Below, piece after piece: positions 1,537 through 45,116 of a DNA stretch of 45,116 nt (position 1 is the first letter of the stretch; each line of letters opens with the position of its first letter). The stretch covers positions 1 to 45,116 of the forward strand of contig CAMDCH010000001.1 of NCBI GenBank assembly GCA_945889655.1. The letters run 5' to 3'. The notes beneath the pieces are model-generated. The model was given only the letters and a program-made list of their open reading frames with translations. It searched no databases and was not told the origin of the DNA. The DNA is from a bacterium HR33 (GTDB lineage Bacteria > Gemmatimonadota > Gemmatimonadetes > Gemmatimonadales > GWC2-71-9). Made by a program: the position numbers and the translations under genes.

Positions 1537-3233
1537 AATTCCGGACGCGGCTGCTGCTCGCGTTCGCGGCAGTCGTCGTGGCGCCGCTGATCACGCTGAT
1601 TGTTGGCATCCGCTACGAGTTCGGCGAACGGCTCGAAGGACAGTACCGGGAACGCCTGGAGCGCATCGCGTCGCTGATTGACGCTGATTTGCAGGTGGAA
1701 GCGACGGATCTCGAGCGCCGGATCCAGACGATTACCGCGGACATAGCGTCGGACAATCGTTTCAGGCTCGCGCTCGCTGGGCAGGCCGACCGCCGGTACA
1801 TCCTCGACTATTCGCCGCGCATGATGGAACAGGGTGGACTCGCCACGCTCTGGATACAGGATTCGTCCGGGCGAATTCTCTCTTCCGGTCACTACCGCAA
1901 CGAGTTCGACCGCATCGTCCGTCTGTTGCCGTCGGCGGACGCCCGGTTTCTGAAGGTCCGACTCCCAGACGGGAACCGCGTGGTCTTTGCGCGCAGGGAA
2001 GGCATCGCGGTCGGGGCGGCCCGTCTCTCCCTGGTCGCCGGCGTCGACGGTCCCGCGCTACTCGCCCGTTACGCGTCGCCGGATTCGCAGGTCACCGTCC
2101 GGCTGCTGCTTCCGGAAGATTCGCTCCCGTCCCTCCCCGGCGCGGTTTCGCAAGTCCTCGCGCAACCGTATGAGGACACCACGGTCGAAGGGGTTGCCGG
2201 CGGTGTGCGGATCATGGTGAGCCAGTCGCTCGGGCCGCTCGCCCAGGTCCGGCGGAACGTGGACCGCTGGTTCCTGGTGGCCGGCGTGGTGACCCTGGGG
2301 GCGGCGCTCGCCATCGCGTGGGCGCTGGCCAATCGTGTAAGTCAGCCCCTCGAAGATCTCGCCGAGAAGACCGCTCGGCTCGACCTCGAGCGGCTGGATG
2401 TTTCCTTTGTTGAGGAGGGGCAAGGGGAGGGGCAGGGGGAGGGTGAGGTCGCCGAGCTGGCGCGCACGCTCCAGCAGATGACGGACCGCCTGCGGGCCAG
2501 CATGGCCACGCTGCGGGAAGCCGAGCGGCGCGCGACCGTGGGCGACCTGGCCCGGCAGCTCAACCACGACATCAAGAACGGTCTCGTGCCGGTGCGGAAT
2601 GTCTTTCGCCATCTCTCGCAGGTGGCGACGGAGAACCCGGCGCAGCTTCCGGCGATCATGCTCGAGCGGCAGGGAACCATCGAGGCGGGGATTACCTATC
2701 TCGAGAACCTCGCCCGCAACTACGCGCGCCTGACACCCGCGCTCGACCGCCAGCCCAGCAATCTGAATGCAATCATCAATGAGGTCGTGCCCCCACTCGG
2801 CACGGGGGCACACCTCGAGCTGGATCTCGCGCCCGGGTTGCCGGACGTGGCGGCGGACCCGCTCGTGCTGCGGCGGATACTGGAGAATCTCGTGAGCAAC
2901 GCGGTCGAGAGTCTCGATGAGGGAGGGGGACAGGTGACCGTGATCACGCGCGGCGGTGGAAACGGAACGGGCGCCTCTTCCGTAGTTCGGCTGACGGTGG
3001 CGGACCAGGGGCGGGGGATGACGGAGCAGGAGCTGGAGCGCGCGTTCCAGGATTTCTACACGACCAAGGCGGGCGGGACCGGCCTGGGGCTCTCGATCGT
3101 TCGCCGCCTTGTGCTTGATCTGAACGGAAGCATGCGCGTAGAGACGGCGCCGAAGAACGGCACTCGCTTCATCATCGATCTGCCGGCAGCGGGCCCACCC
3201 GCCAACCCGCCTACCCGCCTACCCGCCCCATGA
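1533..3233 (+). CDS. Sensor histidine kinase (TM, HAMP-like linker, HisKA, HATPase_c)
   Basis: 566-aa ORF with an N-terminal TM helix and a second TM (WFLVAGVVTLGAALAIAWAL). H-box NHDIKNGL; N/G boxes ENLVSNAVES, DQGRGM, TTKAGGTGLGLSIVRRL. The start overlaps the upstream gene and the stop overlaps the downstream gene. Confidence 0.85.
   Translation: MKFRTRLLLAFAAVVVAPLITLIVGIRYEFGERLEGQYRERLERIASLIDADLQVEATDLERRIQTITADIASDNRFRLALAGQADRRYILDYSPRMMEQGGLATLWIQDSSGRILSSGHYRNEFDRIVRLLPSADARFLKVRLPDGNRVVFARREGIAVGAARLSLVAGVDGPALLARYASPDSQVTVRLLLPEDSLPSLPGAVSQVLAQPYEDTTVEGVAGGVRIMVSQSLGPLAQVRRNVDRWFLVAGVVTLGAALAIAWALANRVSQPLEDLAEKTARLDLERLDVSFVEEGQGEGQGEGEVAELARTLQQMTDRLRASMATLREAERRATVGDLARQLNHDIKNGLVPVRNVFRHLSQVATENPAQLPAIMLERQGTIEAGITYLENLARNYARLTPALDRQPSNLNAIINEVVPPLGTGAHLELDLAPGLPDVAADPLVLRRILENLVSNAVESLDEGGGQVTVITRGGGNGTGASSVVRLTVADQGRGMTEQELERAFQDFYTTKAGGTGLGLSIVRRLVLDLNGSMRVETAPKNGTRFIIDLPAAGPPANPPTRLPAP
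3198..3229 (+). repeat. Tandem octamer array (ACCCGCCN)x4 at the 3' end of the kinase gene
   Basis: acccgcca acccgcct acccgcct acccgccc read directly from the sequence. It encodes the kinase C-terminal PANPPTRLPAP. The same octamer, in the sense orientation of its gene, recurs at 45026-45057. Confidence 0.8.
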
Positions 3234-11343: not shown

Positions 11344-11355
11344 CGGCACCGCGCG

Positions 11356-11505: not shown

Positions 11506-11587
11506 ACGGAGGAGGACCGCGGCGAGCATCGTGCCGCGTCGCGCGACTTAGACAACGCCTGACCCGTCCGCCGCGAGTCGCCCAGAA

Positions 11588-12414: not shown

Positions 12415-12505
12415 TTCAACACCAGTCGATTGGTTGGGGTGCCCGATCTGACGGAGAGACTATATCGCCGGTCAATACTAAGGTCAAGACATAAGTATTG
12501 TCGCT

Positions 12506-12557
12506 TCCTTGCGCTGGCGCAGCCTGCGCTCGCAGCTTAAGCGCAACTCCGTCAGGC
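12506..12557 (+). repeat. attC right-half relic (site 7)
   Basis: ccttgcgctggcgcagcctgcgctcgcagcttaagcgcaactccGTCAGGC matches the right arm of the family. The R' is degenerate (GTCAGGC) and no left arm is found upstream. Confidence 0.55.
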
Positions 12558-12566
12558 CGCAGGTCA

Positions 12567-12851: not shown

Positions 12852-12884
12852 TGGCTGCGTTGCTCGGCAGCCATCAGTGTTTGT
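12848..12884. terminator. Hairpin between convergent genes (bidirectional terminator-like)
   Basis: Perfect 11-bp stem ctgatggctgc / gcagccatcag with an 8-nt loop, followed by tgtttgt. Confidence 0.5.
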
Positions 12885-12890
12885 CCGCGG

Positions 12891-14171
12891 CTATGGTGCC
12901 ACGTGAGCGAACACGGCGATACAACCCTTGCCCTTCACGTTGAATTGCGCGCACGCCGTGTTATCGGTCGTGGGGTCGGCGATCTGCGCGGCGTTGACCT
13001 GCACGACGGCGAATATGTGATTGTTCTTTTCAAACGCCGTGGGGTTCGTGGCCCCTGGAGCGGGCACATTCTGCAGCCACGTGTTGGTCACCGCATCGAT
13101 AACGCCGAGTGACGTGACGCCAGTGACGGCGTCCGCTCCCGTCACGTAGAAGCGCTTGTCGCCGGGATTGTACCAGGTCTCATTGCCTCCCCCGACCTGG
13201 GTAATGACGGTCAGGACCTTGCCGGTTCTCGCATCCATGATGACCGGCCTGCCGCATCCCGGTATGATCATGTGCCCGTCGGGTCCCAGCGCCGGATCGT
13301 TGATGCCCAGCTGGACGGTGCCGGTGAGCACCCCGCAATCGATCACCCACTTGTCTTCGATGGCCCGCGTCACCGGGTTGATGACCGCGACGTACTGCGG
13401 GCTGACGACGACGCCCCCGACAATCCTTCCGGTCACCGCGGAAAGCAGGCGGCGCGACTCGGGGTTCCACAGCGGCGCTTCCTGGTTGCCGGCACCCTCA
13501 AACGTGACCGTGCCCTGGATCGTATAGGGAGGCACGGCGGAAATGAACGTCGCATAGGGATCGAGGGCCGCATGGGTGCCGCCGACCGCGAGGGGCGCAG
13601 GCGACTGGACGAAGACGAGCTTGTGCTCGGGATCGTAGGTCATTTCGTTGGTGCGTCCACAGTAGCGAGTGGTGGCCGTTCCGCCGTCACACGCCGGGAT
13701 GCTGACGTCGATGGATGCGAGAATCTGCATGGTGTTGTTGTCCACCACGCGCACCATGCTATTGCCGTCCGAGACGAACGACGTGTTGTTCGGGGTGAAC
13801 GTGATGCTGCTGGGTCCGTTGCCGTTGGTGGTGGGGGTGCCGCCCCCGGCCGTCGCGTTCCCCGCGAAGCCGGTCACCCGGCCCAGGTAGGTGTTGTTCT
13901 CGGCATCGATGATGTCCACCCCGGCGTTCGATACGTCCGTCAGATAGTATCGCATGCTGCCGAGGTAGGTGCCGTGCGAGACCTGCGTGGCGTCGACCCA
14001 GGACTTGGTACCGCTGCCGATAGGGTTGCCCGGAACCGTGATCACGGCGATGAGGGCGACCGGGTCGGTCACCTTGGCTGGTGCGTCCCCGTTCTCGAAG
14101 ACCATGCAACCCGGAGAGAGCGCCGTGATGAAGATGAACAGGAAGGCGAGAAATCGCTGAGTAGGCTTCAT
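12891..14171 (-). CDS. Beta-propeller-repeat lipoprotein (YncE-like), unknown function
   Basis: 426 aa. Signal plus lipobox ITALSPGC. Repetitive beta-strand-rich sequence with recurring ..Y.TD....V.VID.. segments. Confidence 0.55.
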   Translation of the reverse strand: MKPTQRFLAFLFIFITALSPGCMVFENGDAPAKVTDPVALIAVITVPGNPIGSGTKSWVDATQVSHGTYLGSMRYYLTDVSNAGVDIIDAENNTYLGRVTGFAGNATAGGGTPTTNGNGPSSITFTPNNTSFVSDGNSMVRVVDNNTMQILASIDVSIPACDGGTATTRYCGRTNEMTYDPEHKLVFVQSPAPLAVGGTHAALDPYATFISAVPPYTIQGTVTFEGAGNQEAPLWNPESRRLLSAVTGRIVGGVVVSPQYVAVINPVTRAIEDKWVIDCGVLTGTVQLGINDPALGPDGHMIIPGCGRPVIMDARTGKVLTVITQVGGGNETWYNPGDKRFYVTGADAVTGVTSLGVIDAVTNTWLQNVPAPGATNPTAFEKNNHIFAVVQVNAAQIADPTTDNTACAQFNVKGKGCIAVFAHVAP

Positions 14172-18497: not shown

Positions 18498-18515
18498 GAG
18501 AAGAAGCACGCGCGA

Positions 18516-18551
18516 AAAAAGGGCCGTCGGTTGACCGACGGCCCTTTTTCC
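18516..18551. terminator. Bidirectional rho-independent terminator
   Basis: aaaaaa-gggccgtcgg-ttga-ccgacggccc-ttttt lies between convergent genes. Confidence 0.8.
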
Positions 18552-18571
18552 TGGCGCTCGGTGCCGAGACG

Positions 18572-19973: not shown

Positions 19974-22409
19974 TCAGTCGTACCGCAACGCTACGATGGG
20001 ATCCACGGCCGTGGCCCGTCGTGCCGGTACCCAGCTCGCCGCAAGCGCCACCGCGGCGATGACCAGCGCCACGCCACCAAAGACCAGCGGGTCCCTGGGA
20101 CTTACCCCGAACATGAGCAACCCGATCAGGCGTGAAAGAGCCAACGCCATTCCCAGCCCGATGACGAGGCCGAACCCGGCCTGCCATGCGCCCTGCCGTA
20201 CCACCAGCCTGATGACGTCCCCGGCGCTCGCGCCCAGGGCCATCCGCACCCCCATCTCCCGCAGGCGCCGGCTCACCGAGAACGCGAGCACGCCGTAGAG
20301 GCCCACCGATGCCATGAAAAGCGCGGCCGCGCCAAACACGATGAACACGGTACCAAACACCCTGAAGAACCAGGTCTCCTCCCGCATCGCGCTCTCCATC
20401 GACCGCACATCGAAAACCGGCAGGTCGGGATCCAGCGCACGCACCAGCTCCCGCAGCGTGGGGGCCAGGCGTATGGGGTCCCCCTCCGTGCGGATGGCGA
20501 TCGCCGCACTGCCGCGGTCCAGCTGCGCGAGCGGGTAGTAGTACCGCGCGAGGTTGCCCTGGCCGGGCTCCAGCCCGCGGACCGCAAGCGTGGGTGCCAC
20601 GCCAACGATGGTGAGCCAAGGCCAGGTGCTGGGCGACTTGATGGATCCACCAGGCCGGATCCGACGGCCGATGGGATCAGCGCCGCGGAAGTACAGGCGC
20701 GAAAACTCCTCGTCCACGATCGCGACGCGAGCGCCCCGTTCGTCATCACTCGCGTTGAAGCCGCGACCATTCAACAAGCGAACGCCAAACGTGTCAAAGA
20801 ATCGCGGCGTGATGGCCGTGGACCCCGCCGTCGGGAAGTCGCGGTCAGTGGCGTAGGCCTCGCCCTCGACCGCGACTCGGCCATCCCCGCTGCCACCGGG
20901 CAGCTCGGTGGTGAGCGCCACACCTCCCGCGCCGGGCATCGTGGTGAGGCGCTCTTCCAGCGTCTGCCAGAATCGTCGGCGGGCGACCGAGTCGGGGTAG
21001 CGCGCGTCTATCAGCGCGACCCGCGCCGTAAGTACCTGCCCGGTCTCAAACGGGAAGTCGTAGGTCTCGATCTTCGTGAGACTCTTGACCATGAGGCCGG
21101 CGCCGACCAGCAGCGCGCAGGAGAAGGCCACCTGGGTCACGACCAGCGCGCGACTGATCCGGCCGCCACTCATGCTGGACGCGCCGCGGCTCTCATCCTT
21201 GAGCGTGGCGCCGAGGTTGGCACGGAGCACGTGGAACGCGGGCGCCGCGCCAGCCGCCAGCGTCGTGAGCACGGTGAGCGCGGCGACGAACGCCAGGACC
21301 ACCGGGTTGAGGTCAAAAATCATGTAGTACGGCTTGCCGACATCCTGGGTCGCGCGGTCGAACAGGGTAATCCCGCCGTACGCGATTGCCGTGCCGATCA
21401 CCGCCCCGGCAAAGGCGAGCAGCCCGGTCTCCACGAAGAACGGCAGCACCACCTCGAACCGGGAGGCGCCGACCGCGGTGCGCACCGCCGCCTCACGAAC
21501 CCGGAGCAATGCGCGGGCGAGCACCAGGTTTGCCACGTTGGCACAGGCGATGAGCAGCACGAGGACCGTCGCCACTAACATCGCGGTGAATACCGTGATG
21601 ACCTCGGTCCCGTTGTCATCCTCGACGAACGTCTGGAAGACGGTGGTAACGCCTTCGTTGGTTGCGGGGTATTCCCGGGCCAGCGCCGCGGCGATGCTCT
21701 TCATGTCAGCGTCGGCCTGGTCCCATGTGATGCCGTCCTTGAGTCGTGCGGCGACCTTGACCTGCGGGCCGCCCTCGCGAGTGGGCGTGTTTCCCCGGAG
21801 GTCACGCTGCGCGGTCCAGAGCAACGACTCCTGGGGAAACAGGAATCCCGGCGGCATCACGCCGAGCACGGTGGCCGCGGTGCCGTCGATATAGACAGAG
21901 CGGCCGACGATGGAGGAGTCGCCGCGGTAGCGCGTACTCCAGAGCCAGTGCGAGAGCATCACGGTGAGCGGCGCCCCGGCCTTCTCGTCATCCGGGCTGA
22001 ATCCCGTTCCCAGGATCGGCCGGACACGAAGGACATCAAAGAGAGTGGAGGAGACGCGCGTTCCCTCGTAACGCTCCGGGCCCAGGCTGTCGCGCAGGGA
22101 GACCGTTCCGCCGCCGGTATAGGATCCCATGCCCTCGAAGGAGTGTTGTCGCTCGCGCCAGTCGTAGTAGTCGTGCTGGTTGGCGGCCATGAAGTCCTGG
22201 TTGCGCGAGGGGTTGGAGCGCTGGATCACCCGCACGCGGTCGGCCTCGGGGATCCCCAGCCCCCGGATCATGACTCCGTAGAAAAGCGAGAAGGTGTTCG
22301 TACAGAGACCGATCCCCAGGGCCAGCGTCACCACCGCGACGAGAGCGGAGCCGGGCTCACGGAGCAACGCGCGGAAGCTGAAGCGGATTTCGCGGGCCAG
22401 AGATTGCAT
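19974..22409 (-). CDS. ADOP-family duplicated MacB/FtsX-type ABC permease (orphan, no adjacent ATPase)
   Basis: 811 aa. N-terminus MQSLAREIRFSFRALLREPGSALVAVVTLALGIG and two MacB_PCD plus FtsX halves, typical of the acidobacterial duplicated orphan permease family. Confidence 0.9.
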   Translation of the reverse strand: MQSLAREIRFSFRALLREPGSALVAVVTLALGIGLCTNTFSLFYGVMIRGLGIPEADRVRVIQRSNPSRNQDFMAANQHDYYDWRERQHSFEGMGSYTGGGTVSLRDSLGPERYEGTRVSSTLFDVLRVRPILGTGFSPDDEKAGAPLTVMLSHWLWSTRYRGDSSIVGRSVYIDGTAATVLGVMPPGFLFPQESLLWTAQRDLRGNTPTREGGPQVKVAARLKDGITWDQADADMKSIAAALAREYPATNEGVTTVFQTFVEDDNGTEVITVFTAMLVATVLVLLIACANVANLVLARALLRVREAAVRTAVGASRFEVVLPFFVETGLLAFAGAVIGTAIAYGGITLFDRATQDVGKPYYMIFDLNPVVLAFVAALTVLTTLAAGAAPAFHVLRANLGATLKDESRGASSMSGGRISRALVVTQVAFSCALLVGAGLMVKSLTKIETYDFPFETGQVLTARVALIDARYPDSVARRRFWQTLEERLTTMPGAGGVALTTELPGGSGDGRVAVEGEAYATDRDFPTAGSTAITPRFFDTFGVRLLNGRGFNASDDERGARVAIVDEEFSRLYFRGADPIGRRIRPGGSIKSPSTWPWLTIVGVAPTLAVRGLEPGQGNLARYYYPLAQLDRGSAAIAIRTEGDPIRLAPTLRELVRALDPDLPVFDVRSMESAMREETWFFRVFGTVFIVFGAAALFMASVGLYGVLAFSVSRRLREMGVRMALGASAGDVIRLVVRQGAWQAGFGLVIGLGMALALSRLIGLLMFGVSPRDPLVFGGVALVIAAVALAASWVPARRATAVDPIVALRYD

Positions 22410-22553
22410 TGGGAATCCGGAAGGGGACGCCGGGGCCTACGTCCAGAGAGAGGATGGGGTTTCACATCCCTTCTTGCGCCCCACCCGCCGGCACTGGCAG
22501 GTTAAGTTCAAACTCCATCAGGCCGCCAGCACACGTCCCGAGGAAACACAATC

Positions 22554-26986: not shown

Positions 26987-27916
26987 ATGTTCGAAAGCAG
27001 AAAGAGCGGTCTTATCGCGGCCACGATCTGGGGAGCGCTGTTGCTCGCACAGGCGGCTTGCGGAGAGAAGAAAGAGCCACGGATCTCGCAGATCGAAACG
27101 GATGGACGCGGATCCACTCCGGTCACTTCGGAGACTACGGTCACGCCCGTGGTGAAAACGACCGAAATCACCGGCCCGGTGACTTTCGAGGATGGAGAAG
27201 TCGCGTTTGGCGAGAAAAAGTACGATGAGGCCACGAAGATCTTTCAGGTCTACACCACCGAGAAGCCGCAGAATCCGTGGGGCTTCTACATGCTCGGCCT
27301 CTCTTCGTGGAAGTCAAACGACCTCGAGACCGCCGAGACGGCGTTCCTCAAGACCGTCGAGCTCGACCCCTCGCACGTGAAGGGGAAGTTCAACCTCGGT
27401 CGCGTCTACCTGGACAAGGGCGAGCCGGACAAGGCGGTCGAGCAGTTCACGGCCGCGCTGCTGATCGATTCCAATTCGGCCGAGGGGTACCGGCTCCTTG
27501 GTCGCGCGCAGGATGAGCAGGGCCTGCTGGTGGAGGCGGAGCATTCGTACCGCCAGGCCATCAAGCTGGACAGCGCCGACTACTGGGCCATGAACAACCT
27601 GGCCATGAACTTCATCCTCCAGGATCGTCCGGGTGAAGCGCTCGGCGTGCTGGCCCGCGTGGTCGAGATCAAGCCCGACAACACGCTGTTCCAGAACAAC
27701 CTCGGCATGGCGCTGGAGCTGAACGGCTACTTCGTGAAGGCCAGCGAGTCGTACGCGAAGGCCGTGGAGCTGGACACCGGCTCACAGAAGGCGATGGAGA
27801 ATCTCGCCCGCGTGACCGGCCATCCCGATGTGGAAGGACTGGATGAACTCAATCTCGACGCTCTCGCCGCCGGTTTTGCGACGGAGGTTTCGAGTCCGCA
27901 GGTGAGTACGAACTAA
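26987..27916 (+). CDS. TPR-repeat lipoprotein
   Basis: ATG after gggagaagga. Lipobox LLAQAAC. Several TPR units (..A...F.K.VELDP.....KFNLGRVYLDKGEPDKAVEQF..AL.ID..). Confidence 0.75.
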   Translation: MFESRKSGLIAATIWGALLLAQAACGEKKEPRISQIETDGRGSTPVTSETTVTPVVKTTEITGPVTFEDGEVAFGEKKYDEATKIFQVYTTEKPQNPWGFYMLGLSSWKSNDLETAETAFLKTVELDPSHVKGKFNLGRVYLDKGEPDKAVEQFTAALLIDSNSAEGYRLLGRAQDEQGLLVEAEHSYRQAIKLDSADYWAMNNLAMNFILQDRPGEALGVLARVVEIKPDNTLFQNNLGMALELNGYFVKASESYAKAVELDTGSQKAMENLARVTGHPDVEGLDELNLDALAAGFATEVSSPQVSTN

Positions 27917-28043
27917 GTAAGAAGTGAGAAGTAAGAAGTAAGAAGTGAGAAGTAAGAAATGAGAAGGCGCTGTGGGTGGGATCGGATCGCCACCACAGCG
28001 CCTTTTTGTTTTCTTCTCACTTCTCACTTCTCACTTCTTACTT
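27916..28043. repeat. Tandem-heptamer-armed palindrome H1 ((AGTRAGA)n, GC hairpin, (TCTYACT)n) filling the stop-to-stop gap
   Basis: The left arm is agtaaga agtgaga agtaaga agtaaga agtgaga agtaaga aatgaga. The core is ggcgctgtgggtgg-gatcggatc-gccaccacagcgcc. The right arm is tcttctcac ttctcac ttctcac ttcttac. It spans exactly from the TPR gene stop (27914-27916) to the moxR stop (28045-28047). Confidence 0.85.
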
Positions 28044-28044
28044 G

Positions 28045-29064
<1,020 letters not shown>

Positions 29065-32001: not shown

Positions 32002-32537
32002 GGGAGCCGACGATTGCCCGGAACTACGCCGAGGCGCTCTTCGAATCGGGTGAACGCTCCGGGGCCACGGCGCAGTACATCAACCTGATCGAGAGCGTGG
32101 CGGGTGCCATCGAGGCGGATGAGAGAATCCGTGTCACACTCGAATCGCCCCAGGTTTCCAAGCCGGTGAAGCAGCGGATCCTCGGCGATGCGCTGAAGGG
32201 CAAGGCGCCGGAGCCGTTCATCAGGTTCCTCTCGGCCGTCATCAAGCGGGGCCGGCAGGGCATGATCGGTGCGATCTCCCGGGAGTACCTGGCCCTGGTG
32301 GACGTGAAGATGAACCGCGTACACGCGTCGGTTACCGTGGCGCGGAAACCCGATGAAGCCTTGCAGAAGGACATCGCCGACAGGCTGTCGAAGCTCGTGG
32401 GGAAGACGATCGTGCCGCATTTCCGGCATGACCCCGCGATCATCGGCGGGGTGTTGGTGCGCATCGGCGACCAGGTGATGGACGGGTCGGTGCGAAGGAA
32501 GATGATTACGCTTCGAAAGAAGATGCTGGGCGCGTAG
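31998..32537 (+). CDS. atpH: F0F1 ATP synthase subunit delta (OSCP)
   Basis: 179 aa. IARNYAEALFE.. start and ..DPAIIGGVLVRIGDQVMDGSVRRKM C-terminus are typical of delta subunits. Confidence 0.8.
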   Translation: MREPTIARNYAEALFESGERSGATAQYINLIESVAGAIEADERIRVTLESPQVSKPVKQRILGDALKGKAPEPFIRFLSAVIKRGRQGMIGAISREYLALVDVKMNRVHASVTVARKPDEALQKDIADRLSKLVGKTIVPHFRHDPAIIGGVLVRIGDQVMDGSVRRKMITLRKKMLGA

Positions 32538-32657
32538 GAAGTAAGAAGTGAGAAGTGAGAAGTGAGAAGTAACAGACAAGGTCGCTGTAGCTGAGACGCC
32601 ATGGTTCAGCACAGCGACTTTGCTTTTTCTTCTCACTTCTCACTTCTTACTTCTCAC
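32538..32657. repeat. Tandem-heptamer-armed palindrome H2
   Basis: The left arm is gaagtaaga agtgaga agtgaga agtgaga agtaaca. The core hairpin is gtcgctgtagctga..tcagcacagcgac. The right arm is ttcttctcac ttctcac ttcttac ttctcac. It starts at the first base after the atpH stop. Confidence 0.85.
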
Positions 32658-32673
32658 TGAACAGGGGGCTCGA

Positions 32674-33593: not shown

Positions 33594-33848
33594 ATGAAGA
33601 ACGTCAAGATAGCAGACCTCAAGGCCAAGCTCAGCGAGCACCTGCGGTATGTAAAGGGCGGCGAGACTGTGGTGGTTTATGACCGCGACACCCCGGTCGC
33701 GAAGATAGTTCCCATGGGCCGGACGGGGGTTCTTCGGGTCAGGGAGCCCGCGGTCAAGGGGCGGCTCCGGGATGTGCCACTACCACCACCGTTGAAGCTG
33801 GACGTGGATATCGTCGATATCCTGCTTGAGGAGCGGGGCGACCGCTGA
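33594..33848 (+). CDS. Phd/YefM-type antitoxin
   Basis: MKNVKIADLKAKLSEHLRYVKGGETVVVYDRDTPVAKIVPM.. is the Phd/YefM N-terminal pattern. Its stop overlaps the PIN gene. Confidence 0.7.
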   Translation: MKNVKIADLKAKLSEHLRYVKGGETVVVYDRDTPVAKIVPMGRTGVLRVREPAVKGRLRDVPLPPPLKLDVDIVDILLEERGDR

Positions 33849-34267
33849 TTGCGTACGTCGACTCTTCGATTCTGCTTCGAATGGTGATGGGGCAGCCGGG
33901 GCAGCTCGAGGAGTGGCGGCAGCTGGACCAGGCAGTTGCAAGCTCGCTTGTCGAGGTGGAGTGCTTTCGCACGCTGGATCGCTTTCGGCTCCGCGAGCAG
34001 ATACAACCGGCCGACCTGACCGCCCGCTACGAAGCGATGCATCGACTGGTCGAGCGCTTGCGCCTGATCGAACTGGACACGAGAGTCCTTCGCCGCGCGG
34101 CTCAGCCTTTGCCCGTCCCTCTCACGACCCTGGATGCGATACATCTGGCTACCGCGATGTTGTGGATGGAAGCAGATGGCGTCCCCGGGATACTCGCTAC
34201 GCATGACGCGGCCCTTGGACGGGCGGGACGGGCGGTGGGGTTCCGGGTCCTCGGGGTGCTGACCTGA
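33845..34267 (+). CDS. vapC: PIN-domain toxin VapC (probable non-ATG start)
   Basis: The reading frame from 33845 gives LIAYVDSSILLRMVMGQ.... The conserved N-terminal acidic residue (YVDSS) lies upstream of the first ATG (33881). ..LDAIHLATA.. is the third PIN acidic motif. The only start-like codon is CTG at 33845, overlapping the antitoxin TGA. Confidence 0.65.
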   Translation: MIAYVDSSILLRMVMGQPGQLEEWRQLDQAVASSLVEVECFRTLDRFRLREQIQPADLTARYEAMHRLVERLRLIELDTRVLRRAAQPLPVPLTTLDAIHLATAMLWMEADGVPGILATHDAALGRAGRAVGFRVLGVLT

Positions 34268-34338: not shown

Positions 34339-34971
34339 GTGACGAGCCTGACCCCGTGCATCTACCCGATGATTCCGATCACCGCCGGGCTTCTCGCCGG
34401 CGCCAACCGCGAGAACCCTTCGCGGGCCCGCACCGTCGGTCTCACGCTCACGTACGTCCTGGGGCTTTCGCTGTTCTACGCGTTCCTGGGCGTGCTGGCG
34501 GGGATGACCGGCCAGCTCTTCGGAACGGTGAGCGCCTCATGGTGGGCGCGGCTACTCACCGCCAACCTGCTGCTCTTCTTCGGGCTCGCGATGCTCGATG
34601 TCTTTCCGCTGACTGCGCCGCAACGCCTGCTCCAGTGGGCCGGCGGACTCGGCGGGGGCTCGTATCCCGCGGTCTTCCTGCTCGGCGCTACCTCGGGCAT
34701 CGTGGCGGCACCGTGCGGCGCGCCAGCGTTCGGCGTAGTGCTGACCTGGGTTGCCGGGACCCATAGTGCCGTACTGGGGTTCATTTACCTGTTCGTTTTC
34801 TCGCTCGGCATGAGCGCCATTCTCGTCCTTGTCGGGCTGTCCTCCGGAACGCTCGCGGCGTTGCCGCGATCCGGGATGTGGATGGTCAGGACCAAGAAGG
34901 TCGCGGGCATCCTGATGCTGGTGATGGCGGAGTACTATCTCGTACAGGCGGGACTGGTTTGGCCGTGGTGA
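34339..34971 (+). CDS. ccdA: Cytochrome c biogenesis / thiol-disulfide transporter CcdA (DsbD-family TM domain)
   Basis: SLTPCIYPMIPIT and ..APCGAPAF.. are the two conserved Cys-Pro helices. The first canonical start (GTG at 34339) sits only 5 codons before the first Cys. The open frame continues upstream to 34207 with a plausible TM segment (NPLLAVATLFGAGLV) but no ATG/GTG/TTG. Confidence 0.75.
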   Translation: MTSLTPCIYPMIPITAGLLAGANRENPSRARTVGLTLTYVLGLSLFYAFLGVLAGMTGQLFGTVSASWWARLLTANLLLFFGLAMLDVFPLTAPQRLLQWAGGLGGGSYPAVFLLGATSGIVAAPCGAPAFGVVLTWVAGTHSAVLGFIYLFVFSLGMSAILVLVGLSSGTLAALPRSGMWMVRTKKVAGILMLVMAEYYLVQAGLVWPW

Positions 34972-35021
34972 GGTGCGAGGTGCGAGATGCGAGATGCGAG
35001 GTGCGAGGTGCGAGGTGCGTA
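34966..35021 (+). repeat. Tandem heptamer array (GTGCGAG/ATGCGAG)x6-7, starting inside the ccdA stop codon
   Basis: gtgcgag gtgcgag atgcgag atgcgag gtgcgag gtgcgag gtgcgta read directly from the sequence. There is no complementary arm nearby. Confidence 0.85.
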
Positions 35022-35667: not shown

Positions 35668-38097
35668 TCAATCCGCGTTGAGGGCTACCACCGGATCGAC
35701 CCTCGCCACGCGTCGAGCGGGCAGGAAGCTTGCCAGGATCCCGGTCAGGGCCAGCGATCCCACCACCAATCCGAACACGAGCGGGTCCCGCGCGTTGACC
35801 TGGAACAGCACCATCTGGAGCGGGGCACTGGCGATCGCGGCTAGCCCTAAGCCCAGCACGAGACCAAGCCCCAGCTGAAGCATCCCGCGCTTCATGACCA
35901 AACCAACCAGCCCCTGCGGCTTGGCACCTAGCGCCAGGCGGATACCCATCTCCTGCGTGCGCCGCGCGACCGCGAATGACATCACCCCGTACAGGCCCAC
36001 CGCGGCAAGAAAGAGCGCCACGAATCCAAAGATCATGAAGAGCACGCCGAATATCCGGTAGAACCAGGTCTGCTGGGCGATGACGCCGTCCATGGTGAGG
36101 ACGTTGAAGATCGCGAGGTTGGGGTCGAGCGAGACGACCGCACCGCGGATGGCTTCCACCATCGACAGCGGCGGGCCCGAGGTGCGGACGGCGATACTGA
36201 CAAAGTTGCCGACGCCGCTCTGGGAGATGGGGATGTAGAAGCCGGCCGGGCTCTGGTTGTTGTTCCCGATGCCTTCCATGCGCATGTCAGGCACAACGCC
36301 GATCACCGTGAGCCACTTGGCCGTAGTGTCGCGCCGGTTCATTCGGAACCGGCGGCCCATGGGGTCCAGGCCGGGGAAGAAGTTCTTCGCGAACGTCTCG
36401 TTGATCACCGCCACCGGCTGGTCCTTGGAGCCGTCCCGGTCGGTGAACACGCGGCCGCTGCGGATCTGCACGTCGAACGTGCTGAAGTACCCGGGCGTCA
36501 CGATGCCTTCGCGCGCGCTTGGATAGTCGCGGTCTTCCGCGTACGTCTTTCCTTCGACCTCGAACACGCGGGCGCCGTTGCCCGAGGCGGGCAGACCGTC
36601 GGAAAGCGTGGCGCCCACGATCCCCGGAAGAGTCGCGAGCCTCGGCTGGAGCTGATCGTAGAAGCGCAGTCGGCTGGCAGTGTCGGGATACTCGACCTCT
36701 GGCAGGTTGATCCGTGCCGTGAGGATGCCGGATGTCTCGAACGGCAGGTTCACGTCCCGCAGCTGCGCGACGCTCTTGATCATGAGCCCCGATGCGATGA
36801 GCAGCCCACACGACAGGGTGACCTCGGCCACGACGAGGAACCCGGTGAATTTCCCGATGTGGAGGCCCGATGATCCCCGGCTCTCATCCTTGAGAACTTC
36901 TCCCACGGCCATTCCGGTTGCTTGCAGCGCCGGGATGACGCCCGCGACAATCGCGGAGAGCAGCGTGACGGCAGCGACGAAGAGCAGGACGCTGCGGTCG
37001 GGAGTGAAGTCCATCCAGAAGGGCGGCGGATTGCTGGCCAGCGCCCGGTTGAACAGCGCCACGCCCGCATAGCCAAGGGCGGTGCCGATCGCGGCCCCAC
37101 CCAGGGAGAGGACCAGGACTTCCGATACCATCTGCGTGACGATTCGCATGCGGCTCGCACCCAGCGCGGTGCGGACGGCGACCTCGCGCATCCGGACCGA
37201 GGTTCGGGCCAGGAGCAGGTTCGCCACGTTGAAACAGGCAATGAGCAGCACGCCGATGACGGCGCCCAGCATGGTGTAGAGCAGCGGGAAAATCTGCGCG
37301 CCCAGGATCCGCCGCATGTAGGGCTCGACGCTCGCGGTGAGGTCCTTGTTGGTCTCGGGCCAGGCCTGGGCTGCGCGGCTGGCGAAGACGGCAAAGGCAG
37401 CCTGCGTCTGGTCCATCGAAACGCCGGGTTTGCGCTTTCCCACGCCGACGATCCCCGGCCCGGTCCCGCGCGCGTACTTGCCGGGGTCCACGACCATCGG
37501 CGCCCAGACCTGGTGGTTCACCGGGAAGCCGAACTTGGGCGGCATAACGCCGACGATGGTGCGGACGCCGCCGTTCACCCTCACGGTTTTTCCGATCACC
37601 GCGGGAGAGCCGGCGAACTGGTTCCGCCAGACGTCGTAGCCGAGGATCAGGATCTGGTCGGCGCCGGGCTTGTCGTCCCCTTCGCGGAAGACCCGGCCGT
37701 GGATGGCTTCGACACCGAGGATGCGGAAGACATTGGCGGTGAGGAACGCACCCTGGTAGCGCTCCGGCCGGCCGGCCTCTGACGAGAGGTTCACGGCCCA
37801 GCTATCCCACGCGCCCATCTCCTCCAGCACGGTCTGCTGCTCGCGCCACTCGGCGAAATCGTGGACCGAGAGGTCCATGTTCTGGATGTTCTGGGACGGG
37901 TTGGCCCGGCCGACCGATACGATCCGGTCCGCGCCCGGGAACGGCAGCCCGCGCAGGATGGCCCCGTTCACGATGGAGAAGATCGTCGTGCAGAGGCCGA
38001 TGCCGATGCTCAGGGTCAGGACGGTGATGAGGGAGAGGCCCGGATTCTTGACGAGCATCCGGAATCCGTATCGCAGGTCCTGGAGCAGGGCAGCCAT
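35668..38097 (-). CDS. ADOP-family duplicated MacB/FtsX-type ABC permease (second copy)
   Basis: 809 aa. MAALLQDLRYGFRMLVKNPGLSLITVLTLSIGIG N-terminus, with the same architecture as 19974..22409. Confidence 0.9.
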   Translation of the reverse strand: MAALLQDLRYGFRMLVKNPGLSLITVLTLSIGIGLCTTIFSIVNGAILRGLPFPGADRIVSVGRANPSQNIQNMDLSVHDFAEWREQQTVLEEMGAWDSWAVNLSSEAGRPERYQGAFLTANVFRILGVEAIHGRVFREGDDKPGADQILILGYDVWRNQFAGSPAVIGKTVRVNGGVRTIVGVMPPKFGFPVNHQVWAPMVVDPGKYARGTGPGIVGVGKRKPGVSMDQTQAAFAVFASRAAQAWPETNKDLTASVEPYMRRILGAQIFPLLYTMLGAVIGVLLIACFNVANLLLARTSVRMREVAVRTALGASRMRIVTQMVSEVLVLSLGGAAIGTALGYAGVALFNRALASNPPPFWMDFTPDRSVLLFVAAVTLLSAIVAGVIPALQATGMAVGEVLKDESRGSSGLHIGKFTGFLVVAEVTLSCGLLIASGLMIKSVAQLRDVNLPFETSGILTARINLPEVEYPDTASRLRFYDQLQPRLATLPGIVGATLSDGLPASGNGARVFEVEGKTYAEDRDYPSAREGIVTPGYFSTFDVQIRSGRVFTDRDGSKDQPVAVINETFAKNFFPGLDPMGRRFRMNRRDTTAKWLTVIGVVPDMRMEGIGNNNQSPAGFYIPISQSGVGNFVSIAVRTSGPPLSMVEAIRGAVVSLDPNLAIFNVLTMDGVIAQQTWFYRIFGVLFMIFGFVALFLAAVGLYGVMSFAVARRTQEMGIRLALGAKPQGLVGLVMKRGMLQLGLGLVLGLGLAAIASAPLQMVLFQVNARDPLVFGLVVGSLALTGILASFLPARRVARVDPVVALNAD

Positions 38098-38100
38098 AGT

Positions 38101-38199
38101 CGCCTTGGGTGCGAGGTGCGAGGTGCGAGGTGCGAGGTGCGAGGTGCAGCGTGCACCGTCTCTATGCGGGCCTTACGACCGGGGCGGGGCGGGGTTTCA
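38101..38199 (+). repeat. Repeat element copy 1: CGCCTTGG, (GTGCGAG)5 and a conserved ~55-bp G-rich tail
   Basis: cgccttgg(gtgcgag)x5 gtgcagc gtgcaccgtctctatgcgggccttacgaccggggcggggcggggtttca. It is homologous along its full length to 39091-39186 and begins 3 nt upstream of the ADOP start codon. Confidence 0.85.
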
Positions 38200-38317
38200 G
38201 GGGGCGTCCCGTTCGGCGGGTAAACCCGCCACTCGGCTCAGGGCCGCCAAGGCGGCCGTGTCAGAGCGACTGGCTAGTCGCTTCAGCGACTCTAAGCCGA
38301 GGGGCGGCCGCGCGACC

Positions 38318-39090: not shown

Positions 39091-39186
39091 CGCCTTGGGT
39101 GCGAGGTGCGAGGTGCGAGGTGCAAGGTGCGTGGGACAGTGTGCACCGTCTATGCGCGCCTTACGACGGGGCGGGGTGGGGTTTCA
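39091..39186 (+). repeat. Repeat element copy 2: CGCCTTGG, (GTGCGAG)3 and the conserved tail
   Basis: cgccttgg(gtgcgag)x3 gtgcaag gtgcgtg ggacagt gtgcaccgtctatgcgcgccttacgacggggcggggtggggtttca. Confidence 0.85.
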
Positions 39187-39193
39187 AAAGACA

Positions 39194-39295
39194 AAGTGAG
39201 AAGTGAGAAGTAAGAAGGCGCTGCGGGATGAGATTCGATCTCTCCCCCACAGCGCCTTCTTGTCCTTCTTACTTCTCACTTCTCACTTCTTACTT
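39194..39295. repeat. Tandem-heptamer-armed palindrome H3
   Basis: The left arm is aagtgaga agtgaga agtaaga. The core is aggcgctgcggg..cccacagcgcct. The right arm is tcttgtccttcttac ttctcac ttctcac ttcttac. It overlaps the stop codon of the gene at 39294. Confidence 0.85.
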
Positions 39296-39860
39296 ATTTC
39301 GCGCTCGCCTTTGCCACCGCCTCTTTCAGTTCGTCGTAAGCTGCGGGGTCCACTTCCCTGAACGGCGTCGCCCGGTAGGCGATTCTTCCGTCCGGTCCGA
39401 CCACGAACAGGTTCCGGTTGTCCGACTTGTTCCGGATCGCTCCGTACGCGGTGCCGACCTTCTGGTCGGTATCGCTGGCGAAGAGAAACTGGAACTGGTC
39501 ATCCCTCGCCCACGCCGCCAGCGTGTCTGCCGCGTCTACACTGATGCCGATGAGAACGACGTCCTGCCCATCCTTGAAGATCTGTGCGTACTGATCACGG
39601 TACGCATGCATTTGGATAGTTCAGCCACGCGTTCGGGCCCGGAAGAAGAACGCCAGGACAACCGTCTTCCCCTTGTAGTCACTCAGGTGGATCTGGTCGC
39701 GCAGCACGCCGAAGCGCGTGGCGCCTGGCAGGGCAAAATCGGGAGCGACCGCCCCGAGTTCGAGAGGCGGGGCCGTGACCGGCGCCGCAGCCGCCTGGGC
39801 GTCCAGCCTGCTCGCGGCTAGCACCGCGACCGTTACGAGCGCGAGCATCATCTTGCGCAT
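39294..39860 (-). CDS. Exported BCP/AhpC-TSA-type peroxiredoxin with in-frame TGA at the peroxidatic Cys position (candidate selenoprotein, otherwise a nonsense pseudogene)
   Basis: The ATG at 39860 is preceded by aaggagg and overlaps the stop of the upstream paralog. A single 188-codon frame is interrupted only by the TGA at 39621-39623. Aligned to the paralog: FFPKARTRG-C-TIQMHSYRDQY versus FFFRARTRG-TGA-TIQMHAYRDQY. A 7-bp hairpin lies 14 nt downstream of the TGA (39585-39606). Confidence 0.5.
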
Positions 39861-39861
39861 G

Positions 39862-40470
39862 TCAGCCTCCTTTTGCGGGATCCGCGGGGGCCGGTGCCAG
39901 CTTCTCCAGTACGGCCGCGAGATCCACGTACGACGTGGGATCGACTTCACGGAATGGAATCATCTTGTGCGCGATCTTGCCTTCCTTGTCGATTACGAAG
40001 AGCATGCGTGATGCCGTCGGCCGGCCGGCGTTGGCGCCGTAAGCCTTGGCGGTCGTCAGTGGACCCGCTGCATCGCTCGCCATGAGGAACTGGAACTGGT
40101 CGTCCTTCGCCCACGCCGCCAGCGTATCCGCGGGATCAACGCTGATGGCGATCAGGACGATGTCCTGGCCGGCGTGAAAGAGCTTGGAGTACTGGTCGCG
40201 GTACGAGTGCATTTGGATCGTGCAGCCGCGGGTCCGCGCCTTGGGGAAGAAAGCCAGGATCACCGTCTTGCCGCGGAAATCGCTGAGCTTGACGGGATTC
40301 TGGAGTACGCCGTAGCGCGTCGCCGCCGGAAGGGTGAAGTCCGGCGCCATGGTCCCGATCTCGGGAGTCACCGGTGGCGCAGGCGCGGGGGCCACGGCAG
40401 CCGGCTGCTGCGCCGAGAGGGACGTGGTGACGGCGAGCGCCAGCAGAGAACCAACGAACAGTTTTTTCAT
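39862..40470 (-). CDS. Exported BCP/AhpC-TSA-type peroxiredoxin (Cys form)
   Basis: 202 aa. Signal MKKLFVGSLLALAVTTSLSAQ. APDFTLPA..., KTVILAFFPKARTRGCTIQM is the PxxxTxxC-type Prx motif. Confidence 0.85.
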   Translation of the reverse strand: MKKLFVGSLLALAVTTSLSAQQPAAVAPAPAPPVTPEIGTMAPDFTLPAATRYGVLQNPVKLSDFRGKTVILAFFPKARTRGCTIQMHSYRDQYSKLFHAGQDIVLIAISVDPADTLAAWAKDDQFQFLMASDAAGPLTTAKAYGANAGRPTASRMLFVIDKEGKIAHKMIPFREVDPTSYVDLAAVLEKLAPAPADPAKGG

Positions 40471-44058: not shown

Positions 44059-44095
44059 GGGGGGCTTGGGGTCGGCGCTCACGAGAAGCTCCGGC

Positions 44096-44170
44096 GGTGC
44101 TCGGTTCTCGGTTCTCGGTGCTCGATTGACTCCGGAGCAGCGAACACCGAGCACCGAGCACCGAAAACCG
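44096..44170. repeat. Tandem-heptamer-armed palindrome H4 ((GGTKCTC)n / (CACCGAG)n), intercistronic
   Basis: The left arm is ggtgctc ggttctc ggttctc ggtgctc. The loop is gattgactccggagcagcgaa. The right arm is caccgag caccgag caccgaa aaccg. It lies between the NrfD-like stop (44174-44176) and the molybdoenzyme start. Confidence 0.8.
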
Positions 44171-44173: not shown

Positions 44174-45116
44174 TCATGAAATCGGTACCGATTGTCCCGA
44201 CATCACGAACGCGTGCTCGTATCCGAGCAATCCGGCAAGCGCGAGAATGGCCGCGAAGGGTTCGACGGTCACCGAGCCGAAGAGGAGTATGGTGAGCGGG
44301 ACGAGCATCCCCCCGACCACCGAGAGCCAGAACAGCCCGGCGTAACGGCCTCTCAGCATGACCCGCGCGGCGGCGGCGGCGTTGGCCGACGAGTGGCGCG
44401 TGCCTACCTCTCCCACCATCAGAGCCAGCAGGTGCGCCCCCACCGACCACGCGAGCGCGCCGGCGAGGTACGACGCCTCGGCGCGGGTTCTTGGCAGGAA
44501 CGTGGCCGCGAGGAGCAGGATCCCGCTGCCCGCAATCACCATCTGAAACGCGAGCTGGATGCCGACGAGGGGACTCTGCCAGAGGTCGCGCGCTTCACAC
44601 TGCCCGAACAGGAACGCGGTGTAGACCGCCGTCCCGAGTGCGAGGACGCACACGGCAGCGGCAAAGCCCGGGTTCGGGGTGCTCCCCCGCATCGCTGCCA
44701 GCAGCCAGATGAACAGGACGGCGCCGTACGCCGTGATGATGAAGGCGCCGCGGGTGAGCCACGAGCGCCACTGCGGCTTGATGAGAATGAACCAGAAGCG
44801 AGCCGGCCGCTTGAGGTCCGCGATCAGCAGCACGCCGGTGGCGAGCAGCGCGATCATGGCGAGCGCGGGCGCGAGCGTGGTGAAGATGCCGCCGGTCGAG
44901 ACGCCCAGCAGCATCGGTGCGGCCGCGACAAACGCGATCCCCGCCGCAAGCGACTTGGTCCAGAGATAGGCCGAGACCTTCCAGCGCCAGGTGATGGGGT
45001 GGGAGACGTCGTAGGCAACACGGGCGTCGGGTTGGCGGGTTGGCGGGTTGGCGGGTTTTCCAGTACCACCCGCCTGCCCGCCCCCCCACCTACCCGCCGC
45101 GTTGTCCGTCGCCGTT
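44174..45116 (-). CDS. NrfD/PsrC-like polytopic membrane subunit (5' end beyond the window)
   Basis: LIADLKRPARFWFILIKPQWRSWLTRGAFIITAYG is the NrfD-family loop motif. The frame stays open upstream of the first ATG (44914) through ..HPITWRWKVSAYLWTKSLAAGIAFVAAAP (the expected first TM) to the window edge, with no ATG/GTG/TTG. Confidence 0.7.
   Translation of the reverse strand, partial: TATDNAAGRWGGGQAGGTGKPANPPTRQPDARVAYDVSHPITWRWKVSAYLWTKSLAAGIAFVAAAPMLLGVSTGGIFTTLAPALAMIALLATGVLLIADLKRPARFWFILIKPQWRSWLTRGAFIITAYGAVLFIWLLAAMRGSTPNPGFAAAVCVLALGTAVYTAFLFGQCEARDLWQSPLVGIQLAFQMVIAGSGILLLAATFLPRTRAEASYLAGALAWSVGAHLLALMVGEVGTRHSSANAAAAARVMLRGRYAGLFWLSVVGGMLVPLTILLFGSVTVEPFAAILALAGLLGYEHAFVMSGQSVPIS
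45026..45099. repeat. Tandem-octamer-armed palindrome H5 ((GGCGGGTT)x4, loop, (ACCCGCCN)-like x4)
   Basis: The left arm is gtcgggtt ggcgggtt ggcgggtt ggcgggtt. The loop is ttccagtacc. The right arm is acccgcct gcccgccc ccccacct acccgccg. The arms pair imperfectly over about 30 nt. The element lies inside the open NrfD-like frame. Confidence 0.75.

Follow-up and report, generated by a model that had tools for sequence, protein, structure and literature searches.

We analyzed a 45,116-nucleotide (nt) stretch of a bacterium HR33 genome from the phylum Gemmatimonadota (contig CAMDCH010000001.1 of assembly GCA_945889655.1), hereafter the window, and found that five palindromes in it, H1 to H5, have arms built of tandem 7- or 8-nt units, four of them sitting against stop codons. 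With moderate confidence we interpret these as fast-evolving, repeat-armed stem-loops that are made in place, probably act as transcript-end or insulator hairpins, and are kin to the paired tandem repeats of Xanthomonas and Geobacter. The architecture itself is already known; what is new here is its occurrence in a new phylum with units that are not of the G-quadruplex type. A transcript that crosses such an element from either side would carry a purine- or G-rich arm starting from the stop, usually a short GC-rich hairpin, and then a pyrimidine-rich, G-poor arm; in the folding model the whole element is a very stable long stem-loop. The five elements are:

H1, 27914..28047: the whole gap from the stop of a TPR gene to the stop of a MoxR AAA ATPase gene
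H2, 32535..32658, between two + strand genes: from the atpH stop (TAG, 32535-32537) to a 3-hydroxyisobutyrate-dehydrogenase-like gene (GTG, 32674)
H3, 39194..39296: a kinase fragment and a ~100-nt module at left, the stop of an AhpC/TSA-like gene (TAA read as TTA, 39294-39296, - strand) at right
H4, 44095..44170, - strand: intercistronic hairpin from a Fer4-NrfD gene to a molybdopterin oxidoreductase gene
H5, 45026..45099, - strand: translated, with octamer arms (GGCGGGTT)n and (ACCCGCCN)n

The palindromes exceed chance and recur in independent assemblies

Arrays were detected with Tandem Repeats Finder, palindromes with an inverted-repeat finder and the domains of open reading frames (ORFs) with Pfam. 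Chance expectation was taken from 100 dinucleotide-preserving shuffles, and fold z-scores were likewise computed against shuffled sequence. Together, repeat and palindrome detection, shuffling and folding recovered the five elements at the coordinates and with the repeat-armed plan given in a preliminary description of this DNA. Their arms are the longest palindromes in the window (85-100 % complementary, 11-67 nt apart), and all ten have a period of 7 or 8 with 3.4-7.4 copies, the numbers being unequal between the two sides and between loci, as had been noted. Three tandem copies of AGTRAGA with at most 2 mismatches were observed 17 times, versus 0 in the 100 shuffles. The RNA folds of H1 to H5 on both strands range from -48 to -79 kcal/mol (z -3.8 to -13).

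H2 and an unpaired array at 34970-35019 are identical in L122 and L123, which are contigs from other samples, and H4 is identical in contig L207, where H5 is found as well; these features are therefore not assembly artefacts. No change of copy number was seen among the other contigs of the same organism (L121-L123 and L204-L207), which are near-identical. Short-read contigs of two other samples break in the AGTRAGA arm of H2 (L121 at 2424-2453, L123 at 1-31), which suggests that the arm sequence probably occurs many times in that genome. Neither a comparison of the whole window with the Rfam 15 families, at the gathering score, nor a tRNA scan of the window returned a match.

AGTRAGA-armed elements with a GC-rich core

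H1 lies between two convergent stops (TAA at 27914-27916, +, TPR gene; TAG as CTA at 28045-28047, -, MoxR AAA ATPase gene) and, as previously described, spans the whole gap between them. Its left arm is (AAGTRAG)x7.4 at 27915-27966 and its right arm (CTTCTYA)x4.4 at 28013-28043; they enclose a GC hairpin at 27966-28002, and the T-tract TTTTTGTTTT begins at 28003. The two strands fold at -79.1 and -74.5 kcal/mol (z -11.4 and -12.4), with 8 T on the + and 6 on the - strand in the 10 nt after the core stem.

The arms of H2 are (GAAGTGA)x4.7 at 32538-32570 and 4.3 copies at 32629-32658, around a core hairpin GTCGCTGT..ACAGCGAC at 32581-32618 that is followed by TTTGCTTTTTCTT. The sense strand folds at -77.5 and the antisense strand at -72.0 kcal/mol, and the T counts are 7 (+) and 5 (-). 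The element is located 3' of atpH, which closes an atpB-E-F-H block; the dehydrogenase-like gene downstream is unrelated to ATP synthase. H3 has 3.4 copies in its left arm (39194-39217), which contains the stop of an ORF that is a truncated Ser/Thr-kinase fragment, and 4.4 copies in its right arm (39265-39295). Its core hairpin GGCGCTGCGGG..CCCACAGCGCC occupies 39217-39256, its folds reach -60.6 and -67.0 kcal/mol, and its T counts are 5 (+) and 6 (-).

Like H1, H3 is situated between convergent genes, and the core stems of the two are alike (GGCGCTGYGGG..CCCACAGCGCC). The inner stems of H1 to H3 are GC-rich, at -21 to -29 kcal/mol, and past them the + strand has 5-8 T per 10 nt and the - strand 5-6. 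The adjacency to stop codons is tighter than the few nucleotides claimed earlier: in H1 to H3 the first unit of the repeats, a degenerate one, is the stop codon itself, as in H2 where TAGGAAG is followed by TAAGAAG, and H4 lies 3 nt from its stop. A simple terminator scan did not list any of H1 to H5 because their loops exceed its 8-nt limit, and standard terminator predictors would miss such elements. A further practical consequence is that they break short-read assemblies and yield false ORF extensions and low-complexity protein tails.

H4 and H5 differ in unit and setting

H4 is made of (CGGTKCT)x4.3 at 44095-44124 and (GAGCACC)x4.3 at 44135-44170 with a loop of ~11 nt, and its folds reach -48.1 and -49.5 kcal/mol (z -5.9 and -7.1). 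On its right, 3 nt separate it from the stop that closes the Fer4-NrfD gene (TGA as TCA, 44174-44176), and a GGAG together with the GTG start (44082) of the molybdopterin oxidoreductase gene lies just 3' of the hairpin, unpaired by it.

H5 consists of period-8 arrays at 45028-45057 and 45068-45098. The preliminary description had placed it inside an open NrfD-like frame; it is indeed translated, yet the frame is not a plain NrfD gene, and H5 encodes part of the low-complexity linker between the two domains of one fused protein of 517 amino acids, an N-terminal 4Fe-4S dicluster domain and NrfD (window 44174-45116, -; L207 10001-11554). Named Gemmatimonadota homologs of this protein are 64-65 % identical, and among homologs the linker is hypervariable, both in its length and in its sequence. 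Over 1241 nt the window has 2 differences from the same-strain contig L207, both in the G-rich arm of H5, and L207 holds a more regular octamer, (GGCGGGTN)n; the cause is either a hot spot of mutation or an error close to the end of the contig.

No T-tract is present in H4 or H5. The GGCGGGTT arms of H5 hold four GGG tracts, a potential G-quadruplex, and they are the only units with a run of at least 3 G, such runs being absent from AGTRAGA, GGTGCGA (the unit of further arrays listed below) and CGGTKCT. Within 45 kb AGTRAGA occurs at three loci, GGTGCGA at three and GGCGGGTT-type units at two. Considered as transcripts, the elements place a stable fold (-48 to -79 kcal/mol) immediately past the stop, with 5' arms that begin 0-6 nt from it.

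Gene-end bias and arm polarity in related loci

Our comparison covers ~1.4 Mb of related loci in total. A pattern scan of species-representative genomes with AGAAGTRAGAAGTRAGAAG returned at least 120 loci. Among the matches listed, at least 23 are AGTRAGA arrays in Gemmatimonadota metagenome-assembled genomes, and other carriers include Vicinamibacterales, Hymenobacter piscis, Lamprocystis purpurea, Planctomycetota, Verrucomicrobiota and cyanobacteria. Many of these loci show a purine-rich arm, a short GC hairpin and the complementary arm directly after a stop codon, and some are nested with two different units. The cores of AGTGAGA-armed elements all differ across the other genomes. A second set of 80 metagenomic loci (570 kb) was collected around homologs of the 3-hydroxyisobutyrate-dehydrogenase-like gene; since it was chosen via a protein homolog and not via repeats, it is unbiased as to repeats.

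Seven is by far the commonest period in these 570 kb, with 47 arrays; periods 6, 8 and 9 have 7, 11 and 22. In the high-GC related loci the G- or purine-rich arm comes 5' in 50 of 52 inverted pairs, which together use ~18 different units, and one contig, L201, has six different units in 10 kb. The preliminary description had asked where related copies lie relative to stop codons. Arrays at gene 3' ends are G-rich rather than C-rich on the sense strand in a ratio of 75:10, at a median distance to the stop of 0 to -2 nt, while those at gene 5' ends are C-rich in 22 cases and G-rich in 12. The 3' arms are enriched in T (29 % vs 18 % background) and depleted in G (15 % vs 32 %). Where both neighbours of a pair could be called, 6 pairs lie between convergent, 4 between co-directional and 0 between divergent genes. 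A T-tract, defined as at least 5 T within 10 nt past the inner stem on either strand, accompanies 17 of 32 comparable elements elsewhere. The architecture is thus independent of G-quadruplex-forming sequence, and the purine-first order of the arms is strict across ~18 unrelated units.

Palindromes of the same plan with AGTGAGA or GGTGAGA arms are present in two cultured bacteria, Hymenobacter piscis NST-14 (L031 5930-6196) and Lamprocystis purpurea DSM 4197, the latter with three in 8 kb (L103 316-427, 4983-5063, 7550-7630). Both strains are usable experimental systems.

Several relatives keep a (GAGGCCA)n array immediately downstream of the dehydrogenase homolog (L178 10906-10937, L201 4457-4485, L166 2140-2170, L168 1886-1915, L181 1799-1829). 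In at least L178 and L201 it apparently forms N-terminal codons (MTT.EARGQKPEA..) of the next gene, indicating that heptamer arrays can persist and be translated.

The element is replaced in place

The site upstream of the dehydrogenase homolog allows the elements of relatives to be compared at one position, where the flanking genes are highly similar and the element differs:

L201: (GAGTTGAA)n/(TTCAACTC)n
L180, L184: (GCGTTGAA)n/(TTCAACGC)n
L181: (GCGCAAG)n
L168, L166: TAGTGAT, 6.7 copies and ~3 copies
L161, L198: nested (AGAAAGC)+(AGGAAAC) arms
the window (H2): AGTRAGA

The units of L201 and L180 are distinguished by a single position, at which both arms have changed, and this reads in the sequences as covariation on the scale of whole arrays. 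Replacement of units at fixed orthologous sites counts against insertion of a defined mobile element, and turnover with pairing kept favours local slippage plus selection, or templated copying, that holds the arms complementary. The slippage suggested earlier for the unequal arms fits the copy-number difference between L168 and L166 at this site. The element keeps its gene boundary even as its sequence turns over, both arms shifting together. In L201 and L180 the two flanking genes are co-directional and the 5' arm begins on the upstream stop; in these contigs and in L184 only 1-2 nt separate the 3' arm from an ATG that lacks a Shine-Dalgarno sequence.

Relation to known repeat systems

The closest precedent is the GGGAATC repeat of Xanthomonas, of which each genome has 70-75 convergent opposite-strand heptamer pairs (Rehm et al. 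2015, PMC4692102). Its arrays are enriched in intergenic DNA, and their G-rich strand is the coding strand where they overlap the stop or lie 0-50 bp from it, and the non-coding strand where they immediately precede ORFs; pairs are under-represented between divergent genes, and between species length and sequence vary while the type, single or inverted pair, is kept (PMC4692102). The elements described here share the tandem 7-nt units, the variable copy number, the convergent arms, the G-rich coding strand at the stop and the rarity between divergent genes. What defines the Xanthomonas repeats and the Nostoc heptamer GGGGAYT is their GGG(G) tracts, which form G-quadruplexes, and four units are preferred (PMC4692102). 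In contrast, ours mostly have no G-runs, count 3.4-7.4 copies, use several unrelated units, enclose in H1 to H3 a terminator-type hairpin and occur in the phylum Gemmatimonadota. Since AGTRAGA, GGTGCGA and CGGTKCT contain no G-runs, the architecture of the Xanthomonas pairs is held in common and the G-quadruplex subtype is not. Heptamer repeats are also over-represented among the simple sequence repeats of many bacterial genomes (PMC4692102).

In Geobacter metallireducens, the text on repeats of the genome report describes global regulator binding sites of classes 1-3 with 3-5 tandem copies of GTTGCTYN, TCTCCGTS or MTYCTGA, forming opposite-strand pairs with variable spacing at 24, 21 and 8 loci, and tentatively reads them as IHF/HU or regulator sites (Aklujkar et al. 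2009, PMC2700814). The likeness lies in paired tandem hepta- or octanucleotides, several unit classes in one genome and an intergenic location; the units differ, and the relation to stop codons and the arm polarity described here are not part of that text on the Geobacter sites. Direct arrays of the heptamer TAACTGA in Beggiatoaceae, cyanobacteria and Bacteroidetes often lie a few nucleotides from a start codon where a canonical ribosome-binding site is lacking (MacGregor 2015, PMC4679880); in 'Maribeggiatoa' one set among 170 is indirect, a single unit dominates each genome, and binding of a post-transcriptional regulator was proposed (PMC4679880). Arrays at 3193 and 38108 in the window and the 3' arms of L201 and L180 resemble these and the Calothrix cyanobacterial heptanucleotides in lying near start codons. 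Those arrays, however, are almost all direct, whereas here inverted pairs with several units prevail.

Bidirectional intrinsic terminators typically separate convergent genes or close operons. In H1 and H2 the core resembles them in having an A-rich 5' flank, a GC-rich stem-loop and a T-rich 3' flank, and the purine-first polarity is shared as well. Unlike in plain terminators, the flanks consist of tandem arrays, 25-50 nt long, whose pairing gives a stem of more than 30 bp, and H4, H5 and about half of the other elements have no T-tract. Similarly, stable mRNA structure immediately past the stop is the mark of the ribosome termination structure (Chemla et al. 2020, PMC7518266), which is defined by a folding-energy bias and not by repeats or long palindromes.

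The elements also share with several classes of multi-copy extragenic palindromes a location at gene ends and folding into stem-loops. Repetitive extragenic palindromic (REP) sequences are 20-40 nt long with a conserved GTAG or CGTC head and a REP-associated tyrosine transposase (RAYT) as partner, and MITEs (miniature inverted-repeat transposable elements) have fixed terminal inverted repeats and target duplications. In our elements the arms are tandem repeats whose unit varies by locus, and none of the hallmarks of MITEs, REPs or the composite bacterial interspersed mosaic elements (BIMEs) and REPINs was seen. The earlier exclusion of REP, BIME and MITE therefore holds, while the idea that coupling tandem arms with palindromy was undescribed does not, given the Xanthomonas (PMC4692102) and Geobacter (PMC2700814) pairs. 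Roles in mRNA stabilisation and termination, similar to those considered below, are credited to REPs (PMC3733652).

Proposed origin and function

We hypothesize that the arrays would be made and resized by replication slippage, in 7-nt and less often 8-nt units, and that the complementarity of the arms would be kept by selection on pairing or by hairpin-templated copying, so that the arrays come to fill the non-coding sequence between a stop codon and the gene boundary that follows. In H1 to H3 the core could be an A-tract/GC-stem/U-tract bidirectional intrinsic terminator, with the AGTRAGA and TCTYACT arms as its expanded A-rich and U-rich flanks. Judging from sequence and predicted folding, H1 to H3 most likely end transcripts in both directions and shield 3' ends from exonucleases. 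H4 is probably a stability or translation-insulation element that leaves the Shine-Dalgarno sequence and GTG of the next gene free, and H5 may be a copy tolerated in a disordered protein linker. For elements that have no T-tract, a 3'-end or intercistronic stability hairpin or a ribosome termination structure is plausible, and in co-directional cases built like L201 and L180 the hairpin could plausibly mediate translational coupling or insulation.

A textbook bidirectional intrinsic terminator is present elsewhere in the window, at 18509-18556 between convergent genes: A6-GGGCCGTCGG..CCGACGGCCC-T5 (AAAAAAGGGCCGTCGG..CCGACGGCCCTTTTT). It indicates that the organism uses canonical terminators. 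The cores of H1 to H3 follow the same plan, so that the arrays can be read as expanded terminator flanks, and bidirectional intrinsic terminators have the same purine-first polarity as the whole class.

Several points weigh against this interpretation. The earlier suggestion of a strong bidirectional terminator or mRNA 3'-end protector suits the cores of H1 to H3 but is not general: H4, H5 and the GGTGCGA arrays have no U-tract, nor do elements elsewhere beyond the 17 of 32, so that a terminator role fails to cover the class. A comparison of strands for RNA-level selection through G·U asymmetry showed no more than a trend, sense folds exceeding antisense folds in stability by 3.5 kcal/mol on average (p = 0.077, n = 27, crude gene calls, some duplicates). 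Recurrence of the same units at several loci within 45 kb is not predicted by purely local slippage; units may be copied from locus to locus, or a sequence-specific factor may be involved. RNase III could target a perfectly paired stem of 30-40 bp, which would then be no protector, and the preference for period 7 lies outside what our interpretation accounts for. Termination, 3'-end protection and insulation are, moreover, all roles suggested by sequence and modelled structure. The findings nonetheless lead to testable hypotheses on terminators, insulators and self-extending palindromes.

Alternative explanations

One alternative, which we regard as possible although unlikely, is that the elements are a neutral or selfish by-product: slippage would favour 7-nt units, hairpin-templated copying would symmetrise the arms, and arrays would gather where they are tolerated, at no benefit to the cell. 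Much of the turnover is what such a process would leave behind, with unrelated units at orthologous sites, copy numbers that vary between close relatives, many units on one contig (the six in 10 kb of L201), H5 and the 3193-3227 array inside coding low-complexity segments, and the only 2 substitutions in 1241 nt between near-identical strains both in an array; a slippage origin for heptamers has been proposed before (PMC4692102). The placement of the arrays is harder to explain in this way, namely the strand bias relative to genes (75:10), the near-invariant arm order over unrelated units (50/52), the occupation of the same intergenic site across diverged relatives with both arms changed in step in L201 vs L180, the absence of elements between divergent genes among pairs with both neighbours callable, and the exact start of arrays on stops, yet slippage expansion moves no array toward a flank. 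Rather more doubtful is a role in translation, in which the structure on the stop codon would be a ribosome termination structure that blocks re-initiation, and some co-directional pairs would hide the start until a terminating ribosome melts the hairpin (translational coupling). That 5' arms start 0-6 nt from stops suits this idea, as do the 3' arms that end 1-2 nt before an ATG without Shine-Dalgarno in L201, L180 and L184 and the 3193 array that ends 2 nt before the ATG at 3230; stable post-stop structures are reported to control re-initiation across bacteria (PMC7518266). H1 and H3, however, lie between convergent genes and have no downstream cistron, the H4 hairpin leaves the Shine-Dalgarno sequence and GTG outside, and the units are no more Shine-Dalgarno-like than composition-matched permutations. 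It is conceivable, and in our view distinctly improbable, that the palindromes are self-extending, enzyme-independent "replicators" in which out-of-register pairing of the arms, followed by fill-in or template switching, adds units to the opposite arm, the cell using the product as a gene-boundary element set by architecture and purine-first polarity. Outward growth that halts at coding sequence would account for gaps that are filled between two stops or between a stop and a start; sequence just outside the array edges was examined for a signature of such growth, and its identity to the unit is at background on both the outer and the inner sides. Self-extension, if true, would give the heptamer excess of large GC-rich bacterial genomes a common origin and role.

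Explanations at the level of DNA fare worse. We consider it very unlikely that the heptads are iterated binding sites for a nucleoid-associated or regulatory protein, or cruciform or G-quadruplex elements. IHF/HU or global-regulator binding is proposed for the same architecture in the Geobacter text cited above (PMC2700814), one unit recurs at several loci of one genome, AGTRAGA arrays are found at 23 or more Gemmatimonadota loci among the matches listed, and the four GGG tracts in the GGCGGGTT arms of H5 make a G-quadruplex possible there. Orthologous sites with unrelated units and many units per genome nevertheless make a sequence-specific binder unlikely to explain the class, and G-quadruplexes are not general because AGTRAGA, GGTGCGA and CGGTKCT lack G-runs; in addition, the arm order tracks base composition and not unit sequence, and divergent promoter regions are avoided. 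Least credible of all is that these are ordinary MITE or REP/REPIN mobile elements spread by a transposase, their arms being terminal inverted repeats. A reader could point to the similar core stems of H1 and H3 (GGCGCTGYGGG..CCCACAGCGCC), to the GGTGCGA-bearing ~100-nt module that is duplicated and truncates the kinase gene, and to the assemblies that break in the arms as at multi-copy sequence. The preliminary description had named the terminal repeats, target duplications and transposase partner of a MITE as features to look for: read from the sequence, the edges of H1 to H3 have no target-site duplication or direct repeats, and no transposase or RAYT-like gene or domain turned up among the ORFs scanned against Pfam. 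There is likewise no GTAG or CGTC REP head and no conserved internal sequence, the AGTGAGA-armed cores differing between genomes, and the replacement of units at fixed orthologous sites is unlike insertion and excision.

Two ideas on the units themselves were tried and dropped. For Shine-Dalgarno mimicry, the longest match to the 16S 3' tail averages 3.70 compared to 3.53 for base-permuted units (p = 0.11), and the duplex energy gives p = 0.15. A "six-frame stop" function is weak: a stop codon occurs in 44 of 90 G-oriented units vs 37.5 expected (p = 0.04), the p value becomes 0.11 once AGTRAGA-like units are removed, and GGTGCGA arrays have no stops, yet one of them starts on a stop codon.

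Further arrays and a duplicated module

Besides H1 to H5 the window has four arrays that are absent from the preliminary description:

3193..3227, + strand: unpaired C-rich octamer (GCCTACCC)x4.4
34970..35019, + strand: unpaired (GAGGTGC)x7.1, starting on the TGA (34969-34971) of a DsbD-type gene
38108..38147, - strand: (GGTGCGA)x5.7, reading (TCGCACC)n in the sense direction
39098..39131: (GGTGCGA)x4.9 in the second copy (39091-39190) of the ~100-nt module, interrupting the Ser/Thr kinase gene

The first of these makes up the final codons of a histidine-kinase gene and stops 2 nt short of the ATG (3230) of a sigma-54 response-regulator gene; its unit belongs to the same family as the 3' arm of H5. 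The array at 34970-35019 is G-rich on the sense strand of the DsbD-type gene, where TGAGGTG precedes CGAGGTG at 34969. The array at 38108-38147 lies upstream of a duplicated MacB/FtsX permease gene, 10 nt from its ATG (38097), and belongs to the first copy of the ~100-nt module.

This module is present twice, at 38101-38200 and 39091-39190, with sharp boundaries: CGCCTTGG-(GTGCGAG)n-..GTGCACCGTCT..ATGCG.GCCTTACGA..GGGGCGGGG.GGGGTTTCA. Copy 1 adjoins the permease ATG on its upstream side and copy 2 cuts the Ser/Thr kinase gene after ~83 codons. The module may be a 5'-region sequence that is mobile or recombinogenic; no further copy was found in the fetched related loci. The window codes for two paralogous permeases of ~810 amino acids (19974-22409 and 35668-38097, both -), each with duplicated MacB_PCD and FtsX domains. 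Each is preceded, 50-100 nt before its start, by GGGGTTTCA (sense strand: TGAAACCCC), at 22458-22466 and 38192-38200. This sequence may be a common promoter or operator motif.

Other features of the neighbourhood are a PhdYeFM-type antitoxin and PIN-domain toxin pair at 33594-34267, between the dehydrogenase gene and the DsbD-type gene, and a region at ~9000-13000 with a G+C content of 0.57-0.60 vs ~0.65, in which the ORFs mostly have no Pfam match and no period-7 or period-8 array is present. More ORFs without a Pfam match and a DUF2442 gene (7742-8047) lie just upstream. The region may be acquired DNA.

The AhpC/TSA-like gene at the right of H3 (39294-39950, -) has an in-frame TGA at 39621-39623, exactly at the position of the peroxidatic cysteine (..FFFRARTRG*TIQMH..). 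A hairpin with a 7-bp stem and an 8-nt loop (TGCGTAC-N8-GTACGCA) lies 14 nt past this TGA, at 39606-39585. The TGA is probably a selenocysteine codon with a selenocysteine insertion sequence (SECIS) element rather than the mark of a pseudogene.

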